The notes beneath the pieces are model-generated. The model searched no databases, was not told where the DNA came from, and saw only the letters and a list, made by a program, of their open reading frames with translations. From positions 1-64,000 of the IMG/VR virus record IMGVR_UViG_3300029268_000006: a stretch of DNA of 64,000 bases, one strand, 5' to 3'. The translations under genes were made by a program, and so were the position numbers. The stretch is from a virus. Positions 1,484 to 59,130 of the stretch are shown in pieces; positions within the stretch are counted from its first letter, which is position 1; each line of letters opens with the position of its first letter.

Positions 1484-3781
1484 TTATGATACTGTTGTTC
1501 CAGTTGTAGATTGAATAATATTTGTATTATAAAGATTATTTGAAGATGACCAACCAAAATCCAATTTCATTTGGAAAATAGCATCAATTCTTATATTTCT
1601 TTTTAATAATTCAATATCTTCAATTTTAACTCTTTGACAAACAAATACATTATTTTTATAATAAGAAATAATTCCAATTATACTTATTTCTTTTAATAGT
1701 GTATTTAATTGTGAATCACTTAAATTTGGTTTAGCATATATTACTAAATTTCTATAATAATCAAGTTGTCCTCTCGAATTTGGATTTATAACTGGTATAC
1801 CACTCGCGTCAAATTGTGGTGGTGGTGTGTTTTCTAAATTTGTACCACTACCAGAATTTGTATTATTACCTGTTTCACCACCCGTGTTTATTCCGGTGTT
1901 TATTATGTTAGTATTTCCAATTGCATTACTTGTTCCATTTACGGGTGTTCCTGTATTTATTCCATTTACGGGTGTTCCTGTATTTATTCCATTTACGGGT
2001 GTTCCTGTATTCGAAGTTGGTGTTCCAATTATTAATGGACCAGTATTATAAGTTGTGGTTGATCCGGTACTTGTAATTGGAAATAAATTATTATTTTTAC
2101 TAATATCTACAAATTTCATCGAATCAAAAATTTTAAATTTTCCACTATATAATAAAGTTTTTGTTTTATTTGAGTTTAGAATAATATAAAAATTATCAAA
2201 TTTATCTTTTGACATTTGTTTTAAAACTGGAACATCTTCTTGGTTAACTTTAAAAACAACAATTCCCAAATCAAATCTATTTTCATCTGTTTGATAATAA
2301 ATATCTTTTTCAATATATTTATTATCTGATTGAAAAACTAAATTTAGTTTTCCATTCATTATTATTTCACTTAAACTATAAGGTAAAATTGGACTATCGA
2401 TTGAATCTTGTTTTCCTATTTGAAATTTAATAACATTATCAAATGGTGTCAACACAATATTTAAAGTTCCCATTGATTTATAATCATTTTGATTATTAGT
2501 ATAATTACTTGCTAAAATTTTATAATTGTTAATTAGAATGGGGAAAGGTATTTTAACAATATTTTGATTATTTTGTATTTGATTTTGAATATTTGTATTT
2601 CCAAAATTCATTATTTTATCAGCTTTATAATTATATATTTTTGGTTTAGTAATAGTTGAAACATCTAATCTTGCTAATTTTTTACCATATTTTAGAAGAT
2701 TATTTGTTAAACCTATGGATGATAATCTACTAATAGAACTATTATCAATCAGATCAATAACTTTCATTTCAACATCAATTACGGCTGTTGTGTTTGAATA
2801 TTTAATTATGGGTCTATATTCTATTTTTTGAGAAAAATTTTCTGTTATCAAAAAAGTTGTTGGAAACCCACTAATCAAATTTTCTTCATATAGGGTAACA
2901 ACATATTCTATATTTATTTTTTTCCCTTTATTTTCCAATTCGTTTACGAAATTATCAAGATTTTCATTTGAATTATTATAAGTACCATAAATTTCAAAAA
3001 AATCCCAATCAGTAGATTCATTTATTGAAACACCCAATGATTGAAACTCTGGTTGTCTCGGTATTGATAATTTTGCAGTATCACCCAAATTAAAATAATC
3101 GGTTCCAAAAGTGTTAGTTTTTGATGTAACAAATGAGAATTCCAAAAATAATGGATTACTTAAACTTAATCCAATACCGTTTGTTAAATGATCATTTATC
3201 GAATCTGGTGTAACTTGATTTATATTTGTATTTATATCCCTTTGATTACTGATACTATTTATAGATGGGACATAAAATTGAATATATTTTCCCCATTCTT
3301 TTCCATTATAAAGAAAAGGTTGTCCTAAATTTATTATATATTCTGAATATTCATTAATACCATTTATAACTTGAATTCCGGTTTTGTCATAATAAAAATT
3401 ACTTAACCAAAATTTAGTTTTATTATAATAATCATAACTATAACAGGAAAAATAAAATCCAACATATGTATCAAAATTATAATTATTTGGAAAATACATA
3501 GTAACTTTATCATACATTACTGGTGAAGAAAAATAATTCTGAATTCTTAAAAAATTAAATTTTGTAGTATCAATTTTTGCATATTTTTTCAAAACCGGAT
3601 CAACAACAAACAAATTATGATTGATATCGTTATAATTAGTAGTACTTAAAAAATTTCTAGTTCCTCTAGAAATATCTGACCATACTTGATAATTTTCAGA
3701 TACATAATTAGAATTATATTCATATTCCAATAAAATATTTGGATTGATATTGATTAACTTTTTAGTTGGTGTTGCTGCCAT
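1484..3781 (-). CDS. Hypothetical protein (765 aa), probably structural
   Basis: Long ORF preceded by TAATATATA at 3804-3812. Contains NTGTPVNGI x3 repeats near the C-terminus. Confidence 0.75.
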   Translation of the reverse strand: MAATPTKKLININPNILLEYEYNSNYVSENYQVWSDISRGTRNFLSTTNYNDINHNLFVVDPVLKKYAKIDTTKFNFLRIQNYFSSPVMYDKVTMYFPNNYNFDTYVGFYFSCYSYDYYNKTKFWLSNFYYDKTGIQVINGINEYSEYIINLGQPFLYNGKEWGKYIQFYVPSINSISNQRDINTNINQVTPDSINDHLTNGIGLSLSNPLFLEFSFVTSKTNTFGTDYFNLGDTAKLSIPRQPEFQSLGVSINESTDWDFFEIYGTYNNSNENLDNFVNELENKGKKINIEYVVTLYEENLISGFPTTFLITENFSQKIEYRPIIKYSNTTAVIDVEMKVIDLIDNSSISRLSSIGLTNNLLKYGKKLARLDVSTITKPKIYNYKADKIMNFGNTNIQNQIQNNQNIVKIPFPILINNYKILASNYTNNQNDYKSMGTLNIVLTPFDNVIKFQIGKQDSIDSPILPYSLSEIIMNGKLNLVFQSDNKYIEKDIYYQTDENRFDLGIVVFKVNQEDVPVLKQMSKDKFDNFYIILNSNKTKTLLYSGKFKIFDSMKFVDISKNNNLFPITSTGSTTTYNTGPLIIGTPTSNTGTPVNGINTGTPVNGINTGTPVNGTSNAIGNTNIINTGINTGGETGNNTNSGSGTNLENTPPPQFDASGIPVINPNSRGQLDYYRNLVIYAKPNLSDSQLNTLLKEISIIGIISYYKNNVFVCQRVKIEDIELLKRNIRIDAIFQMKLDFGWSSSNNLYNTNIIQSTTGTTVS

Positions 3782-3917
3782 TACAGAATTATTTCTTTTT
3801 ATTTATATATTAAAAAAGTTAAGATGGAAATAAAAAGAAATAAATACTCAAATGTTTTTTTGAATTGAAAATTATATTATTTGGAAATGATATTTTATAG
3901 ATTTAAAAATGAAATGA

Positions 3918-4090
3918 AAAGTCAAACCAAAAACCAAATGAATGACCACTGTTATAGTGGCTTCAGGGTATTTTAACCCGTCTCTTTTAACGTTTCACAG
4001 ACAAGATGCTTCTTAGGTTTCACAGAGAAATGAAACGCATCCACAGAGCTAGCCTCCACGTTCAATAACCGATATTCCATCGGTCAGTAT
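3918..4090 (-). ncRNA. TnpB omegaRNA/reRNA-like scaffold plus putative guide (IS200/IS605 right end), no adjacent tnpB
   Basis: Near-copy of 57450-57608, including a 38-nt identical block (3985-4022 vs 57517-57554). Ends in hairpin CCACT-ATAAC-AGTGG followed by TTCA. Confidence 0.8.
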
Positions 4091-4211
4091 AATTTATATA
4101 TCGGGTTGGCACATCCTGTTATGGTAGGCTCCGAAAATTATTTTTACTTTATTGATTTTACCCGAACCAAGTTTTTAGTCCGGAACCAAATATCAAAGAA
4201 CAATATAAATC

Positions 4212-4220
4212 TATATATTA
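4212..4220 (-). promoter_or_regulatory. TAATATATA phage promoter-like motif upstream of the orphan omegaRNA
   Basis: The same nonamer lies just upstream of sheath, tube and other genes (e.g. 14718-14726, 23300-23395, 50401-50409). Confidence 0.6.
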
Positions 4221-4246
4221 ACTAATGAAAGTCCAAAAAATAAAAT

Positions 4247-4274
4247 AAAAAAGGGGAAACCACTCCCCTTTTTT
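4247..4274. terminator. Bidirectional rho-independent terminator
   Basis: AAAAAAGGGG-AAACCACT-CCCCTTTTTT. Confidence 0.8.
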
Positions 4275-4305
4275 GTCAAACTAAAACCAAAATAAAAACC
4301 AAATC

Positions 4306-4794
4306 TTATTTTTCATCTTCTATTATAATATTATTTTCTTCACGATATTTCAATTCATTTTCAAAAGATTCTTTGTATCTGTTCGAAATACTTTTTACAT
4401 TTTGTAATATGGCTTTAATATGTTCATTTGACATATTTTTTAAAAAAACCATTTTTAAAGGTTGATCCAAATTTTTTCCATATGTACCCCACAATATAAC
4501 TTCTCTTGGTTTAAAACCAAGATTTAACATTACATCCAAATCTTCGGTGTAATACCACATACCGGGAAAATTTGGAATTATTCCAGTATTTACTAAAAGT
4601 TGGGTGAATCTCCAATCAGGATTATCCAACCAAACTTTTTTTAATTCTTCATAAACATCATCCGAAATAATAATATTATTATATGTTAATTTTTCATCAA
4701 TTTCAGAAATATTTATTGATCTTTCTTTTAAAAGATCTAAATAAGGGATTATTCTTTCTACTGGTCTCATTTTATTGAATTTTATTGGATGCAT
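4306..4794 (-). CDS. Hypothetical protein
   Basis: ORF in a co-oriented run of small genes. Confidence 0.7.
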   Translation of the reverse strand: MHPIKFNKMRPVERIIPYLDLLKERSINISEIDEKLTYNNIIISDDVYEELKKVWLDNPDWRFTQLLVNTGIIPNFPGMWYYTEDLDVMLNLGFKPREVILWGTYGKNLDQPLKMVFLKNMSNEHIKAILQNVKSISNRYKESFENELKYREENNIIIEDEK

Positions 4795-57333: not shown

Positions 57334-57386
57334 TTTGAGAACAAAATTTTTGGGATAATTATGTCCAAATTTTTGTATACATATCA

Positions 57387-57608
57387 TGGGTGTGTTCGGT
57401 TTGTGGTGAAAAACATGATCGTGATGTAAATGCAGCAAAAAATATAAAAAATTGGCCGATGGAATGTCGGTTGTTGAACGTGGAGGCCGGCTCTGTGGAC
57501 GAACGTTTCATTTCGATGAAACCTAAGAAGCATCTTGTCTGTGAAACGTTAAAAAAGATGGGTTGAAAACCCAGAAACCACTACATCTTTAGTGTAGTGG
57601 TAATTCAT
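57387..57608 (+). mobile_element. tnpB: IS200/IS605 remnant: TnpB C-terminal zinc ribbon plus omegaRNA/right end
   Basis: WVCSVCGEKHDRDVNAAKNI with no start codon; hairpin ACCACTACA-TCTTTAG-TGTAGTGGT followed by AATTCA. Confidence 0.85.
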
Positions 57609-59130
57609 ATGGTTCCATTTGATTATCTATTCTATCCATTAAACTATAAATATCGGGAATCCCAATTTTTTTAGAATAATCATCAATATTTTGAATTAAT
57701 TCATTATACATATCATAAAAGTCACAAGGTGATGGTAAATATACAACGAATTTATACATGTGTGTGACTGGTTTTTTAAAGTCTATGATGATATAAACAT
57801 GACCACCTAATGCGTAATCATTCCAAAATTCATAGCTTTCACGAGCGAAACACCACAAAGTATTATTACCAAGGGTGATCATATCCCGATTACTACCAAC
57901 CAAAATTATCATAACTTTATTTTTTTCATATACAATATTTGACGATTTACAATATTTAACTTCTTCCCTAATTTGAACTGGTGTTATATCATTTACTAAA
58001 AAATTTTTAATGTCTTTTAAATGTAGTAAAACAGAATCAATTGTTTTATTTTTACTGGAAAATGCCTTTTTAAATATTTTATCAGAATAAACAGGATTGA
58101 TGGTTTTTAATGTATTGAATTGAGACCTTAAATCTTTCATTTTTTGAAATAATTGAACAAATTCCCATCTTGTTCTTGGTTTTCTTATATCATCTCTTAT
58201 ATTACGAAGATAAATACGATCAAAATTTTCTCTAACAAAACCAACAACATATGATCTGTCTTGTAATGCTTCTAATAATTCTAAAATATGTAATTTTGGT
58301 TTCACAATATTATTTGGATCATAATCCACAATAGGGAAAAAATTATTATCATAATCCTTAATATATTCGTACATTTTTTTCATCATCCGGATTGAATTCG
58401 GATTCCAATCATCTTTGTCTTGTTCAAATTGTTTAAAATGATGAAAAGCGTCAGCTATCAATTTTGTATAATTATCTCCACCAGTAATAGATAAAATTAG
58501 TTTTTTATCATTATCAGTAAGTTCACCAGTTTTGAAATATAATTTATTTGCCAATTGAAGATTTTCAGATAATACTAATTTTTTGTTTTGTACTTTTTCA
58601 ATATGATTTTCAATTTTATCAATAATATAATTATCAAATCCATAACTTATCAAATCATATAAATTACTAATTTGTAAATCAATATTATTTGCTGACCAAG
58701 CTTCAATTTTAATATTATTATAAATTGTAAATGTGATGCATAATTTAGATAAATTTACAAAATCATCATCTTCCATTAATTTTTCTAATCTTTCTTGTTC
58801 TTTTTTTGTTAAATCTTCACCATCTTCTTTTTTCTTATTCAAGTAATAATATAATTCGGAATTTTTTTCATTTCTACTAGTTATTTTATCTTTTTTGATT
58901 AAAATAATTAATCCAGTATCACTATATTCATCATTTGGGACATTATCACTATCCCATATTTCTATATATGAACCGTCTGAAACACTAGTACACCAATGTG
59001 TAAAAGCACCATATTTCATGGAAGCTTTTGCGGTTAATGGTGCAACTAAAATATATTTGTTGTCCCTAAAAATATCTATTCTTTCAGATGATTTAACGGA
59101 ACCTTCGAAAATTTTAAAATTAGTAATCAT
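57589..59130 (-). CDS. Hypothetical modular protein
   Basis: N-terminus MITNFKIFE; two G..T.WC modules; last codons lie in the IS end. Confidence 0.7.
   Translation of the reverse strand: MITNFKIFEGSVKSSERIDIFRDNKYILVAPLTAKASMKYGAFTHWCTSVSDGSYIEIWDSDNVPNDEYSDTGLIILIKKDKITSRNEKNSELYYYLNKKKEDGEDLTKKEQERLEKLMEDDDFVNLSKLCITFTIYNNIKIEAWSANNIDLQISNLYDLISYGFDNYIIDKIENHIEKVQNKKLVLSENLQLANKLYFKTGELTDNDKKLILSITGGDNYTKLIADAFHHFKQFEQDKDDWNPNSIRMMKKMYEYIKDYDNNFFPIVDYDPNNIVKPKLHILELLEALQDRSYVVGFVRENFDRIYLRNIRDDIRKPRTRWEFVQLFQKMKDLRSQFNTLKTINPVYSDKIFKKAFSSKNKTIDSVLLHLKDIKNFLVNDITPVQIREEVKYCKSSNIVYEKNKVMIILVGSNRDMITLGNNTLWCFARESYEFWNDYALGGHVYIIIDFKKPVTHMYKFVVYLPSPCDFYDMYNELIQNIDDYSKKIGIPDIYSLMDRIDNQMEPYELPLH

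Follow-up and report, generated by a model that had tools for sequence, protein, structure and literature searches.

The DNA analysed here, referred to as the window, comprises 64,000 nucleotides and makes up the initial 64 kb of an IMG/VR virus record of 132 kb, whose completeness is estimated at 19%. The record represents a tailed phage of high AT content that encodes Ro60, a T4-type large terminase, an NAD-dependent ligase and a ribonucleotide reductase containing an intein. A giant-virus origin, and with it a Fanzor reading of the locus, was considered and ruled out by the T4-type terminase, the NAD ligase and other phage genes, and AAAATTGA shows no enrichment. Between positions 3782 and 4305 there is no open reading frame of 40 aa or more. 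The minus strand of this interval is occupied by an ordered series of non-coding features that runs from the end of an upstream gene to a predicted guide sequence (Table 1). The segment 3918–4236, designated copy A, is a left-end-truncated, protein-less mini-element of the IS200/IS605 type and is PATE-like. A second occurrence of its omegaRNA scaffold, copy B, lies on the opposite strand of the window.

Table 1. Features of copy A and its surroundings, in the order of transcription, together with copy B
Feature	Coordinates	Strand	Remarks
Segment R1, in the 3' UTR after the stop of ORF 4306–4794	4275–4305	minus	Diverged duplicate of guide segment R2
Intrinsic terminator of the upstream gene	4247–4274	minus	Ancestral to the locus and outside the element; terminator scan
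IS left-end remnant with tnpB-type promoter	4204–4236	minus	TTAATATATA at 4212–4221; subterminal hairpin absent
Conserved 5' module, 63 nt	4141–4203	minus	Covariance model R1, 75 bits, E 2e-14
Linker between module and scaffold	4117–4140	minus	AGCCUACC(A/U)UAAC block also in L004 and L191; looser in L069
TnpB omegaRNA scaffold	3938–4116	minus	From the tnpB 3' end and the IS right end; ends in TTCAT
Predicted guide, flank-derived	3918–3937	minus	TTGGTTTTTGGTTTGAC (3921–3937) = segment R2
Copy B: TnpB C-terminal stub, then omegaRNA scaffold and right end	57384–57608	plus	Reference copy

The original prediction, made from the letters of the window, had reported a distant copy of the scaffold, and this copy was recovered: 3918–4100 on the minus strand matches 57442–57614 on the plus strand with 81% identity (E 3e-41). 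In copy B, a stub encoding the Zn-finger and the RuvC-III region with its HDRDVNAAKNI motif is found upstream of the scaffold. An ORF of 513 aa on the minus strand (57589–59130) has its stop and last codons inside the terminal hairpin of the copy B right end (57589–57608), and the insertion of copy B may have replaced the original C-terminus of this ORF. Copy A had been described as devoid of any tnpB coding remnant. This is accurate in that no ORF is present, but the scaffold still reads as TnpB residues 358–394, with 76% identity and one TGA. Nucleotides 4108–4116 (GGATGTGCC) align by eye with the RuvC-III DRDVNAA codons of full-length copies.

The scaffold of copy A can be aligned with those of full-length and mini copies from GGAUGUGCC (4116) to UUCAU (3938). 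Among all copies similarity stops right after (G/A)TTCAT, and the guide is thereafter provided by the flank. A family alignment of 13 sequences analysed with RNAalifold displays five helices, with compensated changes in 22 of the 30 scaffold pairs, and copy A retains every helix of the family consensus. The earlier remark that stem changes preserve pairing is correct as regards the pairing itself, yet between the two copies in the window the changes are one-sided replacements of A–U by G–U. Compared with copy B and with scaffolds that accompany an intact tnpB (L011 and L012, two of the related viral loci), the scaffold of copy A is 81–88% identical. It is the most diverged of its class, the others showing 87–94% identity among themselves, and this divergence could reflect relaxed constraint.

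Related viral contigs were retrieved with a scaffold 26-mer and a fragment of the TnpB stub, and a sequence search with the left-end hairpin provided 27 further loci. The family left end, preceded by TTTAT, has the form ..GTCAAAGAAAAC-hairpin-GATGAATTTGAC..TTAATATATA, and the right end is GAAAC-hairpin-GTAGTTCAT. In some members tnpB comes straight after the promoter; full-length elements are present in L011 (394 aa), L012 and L051. Many others are complete protein-less mini-elements of ~250–470 bp, and complete left and right hairpins together with the 5' module are seen in L067, L071, L077, L080, L082, L163, L176 and others. In L011 a complete mini-element with another scaffold class (2203–2537, minus strand) is located ~330 bp upstream of the full-length tnpB element (2860–4223, plus strand), in inverted orientation.

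The whole architecture of copy A, from TTGGACTT..TTAATATATA via the 5' domain to ..ATTCAT, recurs in L004 and L006, and a metagenome scan led only to these two contigs, which were already known. The genes around the two units have no homologues in the record except for one weak match, and the flanks are unrelated. GenBank phages searched with blastn gave no match. In L006 the mini-element copy lies in a tRNA cluster, its start being ~50 nt past a phage gene for tRNA-Leu(UAA) (L006:1420–1504).

These protein-less elements in unrelated contexts largely bear out the idea of a non-autonomous element, which the original prediction had set against its own proposal of a stand-alone guide-RNA gene. 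The companion idea, that the 5' domain is simply an IS left end, has to be modified, as this domain is a separate conserved module that is absent from the full-length elements examined. Truncation has removed the left end of copy A up to a point immediately 3' of the hairpin, and at the right end the hairpin that TnpA would recognise has been trimmed, with a short hairpin remaining. The two ends with subterminal hairpins that characterize PATEs are therefore found in the relatives and not in the window copy. With the left-end hairpin gone and the right-end hairpin reduced, copy A cannot transpose by means of TnpA and represents an immobilised derivative rather than an intact PATE member.

The signals proposed to flank the 5' part of the RNA were both recovered. 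The hairpin at 4247–4274 is terminator-like, in a region of 800 nt that contains three such sites against 0.2 expected, and its sequence is also present at the syntenic locus in L205. The possibility that this terminator is a variant left-end hairpin was ruled out, given that the same terminator is ancestral at the L205 locus. The promoter motif, TAATATATA at 4212–4220, belongs to a genuine series: the window contains 17 occurrences of TTAATATATA, where 2.4 would be expected, and the 132-kb record has 43 sites for TAATATATA, most of them 14–30 nt upstream of an ORF ATG, with a commonest spacing of 22 nt. The site in copy A is among the few without an ORF behind it.

The motif had been taken as evidence for a phage promoter belonging to the RNA itself. 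As a motif it is authentic, but it was not independently acquired from the phage, being the left-end promoter of the IS family. Positions 4205–4233 match, at 86%, the left end of the tnpB copy that the record itself contains (131834–131862), and the promoter box of copy A (GGACTTT..ATTTAATATATAG) is carried by the full-length elements L011 and L012 and also by L070 and L057. The sharing of this box by copy A, the full-length elements and the tnpB left end of the record identifies the promoter as the transposon's own. The predicted left-end promoter is built on the phage consensus.

Downstream of the promoter lies the 5' module, which recurs in ~30 mini-elements from related phage contigs and spans 63–75 nt in the family. 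Its parts follow one another in the order (A)GUUCUUUGAU, a variable insert, UGGUU, a 9-bp hairpin with the loop AAAC or AAUC, GUAAAAUCA and (A)UAAAAGUA. In copy A they are represented by GUUCUUUGAU, UGGUU, a hairpin in which 4175–4183 pair with 4162–4170 (loop AAAC), GUAAAAUCA and AAAGUA. The module of copy A is 92–98% identical to those of L004 and L006 and is thus better conserved than the scaffold.

Covariation across 28 distinct homologues supports the hairpin. When 20 copies are aligned with MAFFT, both sides change in seven of the nine pairs (41 cells), and the covariation score is 0.370 as against 0.101 for shuffled alignments; none of 500 shuffles reached the observed value, and slid partners scored at most 0.095. 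In a model-fitted alignment eight of the nine pairs covary, and across the two alignments the scores are 0.37–0.43 compared with 0.10–0.11 in shuffles. Across the window and the related loci, covariance model R1 recognizes 30 copies, exactly one of which is in the window (4141–4203), and gives no match inside any tnpB gene examined. When applied to 866 kb of other phage loci that fit a loose DNA pattern, the model matched only L192 and L120, with high scores. Both are real copies, which attests to the specificity of the model.

The module is located upstream of at least five omegaRNA scaffold classes, two of which match, by eye, the right ends of full-length tnpB loci (L027, L066/L068). Its stems have wholly diverged while the single-stranded blocks are invariant, a pattern that argues for sequence-specific recognition beyond shared ancestry. 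Judging from sequence comparison, selection acts on the module. The sequence that follows the promoter was also compared with the interior of four full-length elements: local alignment was no better than shuffles, and the view of the 5' region as a decayed tnpB or a left-end UTR remnant was ruled out on these grounds. Many mini-elements, among them those of L082, L163, L069, L119, L067 and L071, have a further conserved hairpin directly 3' of the module, with CGA(A/U)AACCAAG as its loop; the window copy, L004 and L191 are devoid of it. A pseudoknot linking the module to a second hairpin loop through UGGUU and AACCA was considered by eye and dropped, since it is not universal among the copies.

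A different fold had been put forward originally, namely an H-type pseudoknot within the ~120 nt at the 5' end, regarded as an additional domain of the omegaRNA. Both helices can be drawn in the sequence of copy A, but their 5' strands, GGUUCCGG (4180–4187) and UCGGGU (4160–4165), sit in the two arms of the single hairpin that covariation supports. Their 3' partners are not conserved in the closest relatives, as L004 lacks ACCCGA and L006 lacks both. Moreover, the folding energy of the region is ordinary: with z = −0.39, the 115 nt at the 5' end gain no stability over shuffled sequences, which also speaks against the pseudoknot. The comparative data refute the pseudoknot, and the conserved hairpin module takes its place.

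Rfam scans with gathering and E-value thresholds (E ≤10 in the region, E ≤1 in five relatives) yielded nothing relevant to the module, and an exact 22-mer scan of genome contigs did not find it. The sole pattern match in bacteria, from Paenibacillus vini, lacks the hairpin and was dismissed as chance. The module is apparently undescribed, and it alone looks new, omegaRNA-only mini-elements having been published. Tentatively, and with the odds somewhat against it, the module may be regarded as a functional RNA domain specific to protein-less guide-RNA cassettes, which would make the omegaRNA a self-sufficient expression unit. It would then act in cis, by stabilising or processing the RNA, by antitermination or by sensing a ligand or protein, and would have recombined with at least five scaffold classes in very large lake phages; this elaboration is equally speculative.

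An omegaRNA without an adjacent gene depends on TnpB encoded elsewhere, as the original prediction had proposed, and the 132-kb record does close with the beginning of such a gene. Positions 131834–132133 comprise a left end that includes its subterminal hairpin, followed by the TTAATATATA promoter and by 76 initial codons of tnpB. The N-terminal 76 aa (131906–132133) are 87% identical to a full-length relative, and only these 76 codons are visible. Contigs L005 and L007–L010 likewise break inside the tnpB repeat; the breakage of the record and of related contigs in the same repeat suggests multi-copy elements that fragment assemblies. The TnpB of L011 matches that of ISDra2 with an E value of 2e-72, and related TnpBs keep the RuvC-III HDRD motif. 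A search for the Y1 transposase TnpA (PF01797) was negative in this record and in five relatives, all of them fragmentary. In L053, which is part of the same record as L004, a 5' stub of tnpB (1490–1730; residues 2–73, 78% identical) ends abruptly and is followed by the TTAATATATA promoter of the next gene, a mirror image of the 3' stub in copy B.

The guide offers insight into the history of the locus. In the 132-kb record TTGGTTTTTGGTTTGAC matches its own site and the paralogous segment R1, with no other good match (the best others have at least 3 mismatches in 16 nt). The guide segment is a duplicate of the sequence just after the stop codon of the upstream gene, that is, of segment R1. This segment reads GATTTGGTTTTTAT followed by TTTGGTTTTAGTTTGAC, the first part being also written GGTTTTTAT, and consists of the family left-flank motif TTTAT and then the guide sequence with 3 mismatches. 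Relatives of the locus were sought by a pattern search with the 162-aa upstream gene, which gave none, and through the 765-aa gene, which led to L204 and L205.

L205 is syntenic with the window, the flanking genes being 71% and 80% identical. It harbours a single-copy version of the segment (1060–1080), ..CTGAT followed by TTGGGTTTTTGGTTTGAC, directly before the shared terminator, and carries ATTTGGGTTTTTGGTTTGAC. This site has one extra G relative to the guide and is preceded by CTGAT, not by the TTTAT or TTTAA of intact left ends. A perfect empty site was not found in viral contigs with the exact 20-mer of the guide. The L205 data mark the terminator as ancestral, and the near-identical segment indicates that the guide is native locus sequence, as a homing model requires. 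L205 also contains a full-length tnpB (1040–2470; 412 aa, 40% identical to the L011 TnpB) in the loop of the conserved terminator hairpin, and this insertion is bordered by the 7-nt repeat TGGTTTC. The occurrence of two different TnpB-type elements at the same intergenic spot points to a hotspot for TnpB elements. By way of reconstruction, we infer that element-free and element-bearing copies of the locus were joined by illegitimate recombination, with loss of the left-end hairpin.

An origin of this kind might have left behind nothing but decaying debris: a non-functional leftover, stranded by illegitimate recombination, that looks intact since it is recent. The missing left-end hairpin, the shortened right-end hairpin and the most diverged scaffold of the class fit such a view, as does the absence of a target elsewhere in the record. 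The position of the element inside a local 3' UTR duplication (R1, R2) suggests rearrangement rather than clean insertion. However, the changes that copy A has accumulated leave all consensus helices of the family intact, and the promoter box and module are nearly identical to those of L004 and L006. In addition, L004 exhibits the same trimming of the right end with a short stem kept, which fits a loss of TnpA dependence with retention of the RNA fold. Debris, in the form of slow decay, is on this evidence an unlikely explanation, though the main rival of the best reading.

The opposite possibility is that the RNA has been domesticated as a stand-alone guide, for TnpB- or TldR-like regulation of a phage or host gene or for attack on a host or competitor sequence. 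The claim of a stand-alone guide gene holds to the extent that copy A is an orphan behind a genuine promoter motif of the gene-proximal type, and the locus is immobilised and yet structurally kept. Two relatives, L098 (10650–11083, minus strand) and L198 (6383–6800, plus strand), contain a module and a scaffold of a class like that of L082 and L163 that end in terminator-like hairpins with no IS right-end hairpin, and suggest that fixed, domesticated guide-RNA genes may exist in this lineage. For copy A, domestication as a regulator is not indicated: the guide is flank sequence that matches only its own site and segment R1 in 132 kb, the related TnpBs keep HDRD and are close to the active ISDra2 nuclease, and there is no dedicated effector gene nearby. 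Domestication is accordingly judged improbable.

The best reading of the locus, with a probability of roughly 0.6 on the sequence evidence assembled here, is a guide-RNA cassette that belongs to a selfish element and acts in trans; copy A would be an immobilised mini-element that probably still expresses a guide RNA for TnpB supplied in trans. We infer transcription, loading, cleavage and a role for the module along the following lines. The left-end promoter, whose motif precedes many phage genes, would start a non-coding RNA of ~290 nt comprising the stem-loop module, then the complete omegaRNA scaffold and then ~17–20 nt of flank as guide. TnpB produced from full-length copies elsewhere in the genome would bind this RNA in trans and would probably trim its 5' part, as it does with its own mRNA. 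The loaded TnpB could cut element-free versions of the locus in co-infecting relatives, and such cutting would bias the inheritance of the cassette and its neighbourhood through homing or allele exclusion. The module would most likely act in cis on stability, on processing or on read-through to the guide, and would replace what a translated tnpB mRNA gives to full-length elements.

Mini-elements that consist of an omegaRNA alone demonstrate that the guide RNAs of TnpB can persist and propagate independently of the gene for the nuclease, and the phage cassettes could constitute two-part RNA-guided gene drives at co-infection. If the module determines how stable a natural single-guide RNA is, how it is processed or whether it is transcribed to completion, it would disclose something that omegaRNAs need in order to act in trans, and it could also provide a compact natural part for the expression of TnpB guides. 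Failing this, the locus amounts to a commonplace remnant of a selfish element.

Comparison with known systems places the cassette among several TnpB-related arrangements. The ISDra2 TnpB (Karvelis 2021; PDB 8EXA, 8BF8, 8H1J), to which the L011 protein is close, likewise uses an RNA derived from the 3' end of tnpB and the right end, with the flank as guide. In contrast, copy A has no adjacent tnpB and would form a short transcription unit of its own with an added 5' module, and the intact left ends of its family are bordered by TTTAT or TTTAA, not by TTGAT. IStrons (PMC10690162), which combine a group I intron with TnpB and omegaRNA, share the presence of a structured 5' RNA domain and an omegaRNA in one element-encoded transcript. 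The module, however, is at 63–75 nt far too small for a group I intron and has no intron match in Rfam, and the unit has its own promoter in place of being spliced out of a host gene. The guide RNAs of TldR proteins (PMC10705468) resemble copy A as TnpB-type guide RNAs that are no longer part of a mobile unit; they differ in that copy A has no nuclease-dead effector adjacent to it and its guide matches no promoter or gene in the record.

The closest parallel is provided by PATE-like elements, which often encode omegaRNAs and need TnpB in trans, as described in Geobacillus stearothermophilus (Meers et al. 2023; PMC10055086). Common to both are the lack of an ORF, IS ends with an omegaRNA used in trans and copies in unrelated contexts. 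The elements described here differ in residing in very large AT-rich lake phages, in possessing an internal promoter of the phage's gene-proximal type and in carrying a conserved 5' module of 63–75 nt, for which no description was found; the window copy differs further in having lost the left-end hairpin. What is new with respect to PATEs is the internal phage-type promoter and, above all, the 5' module.
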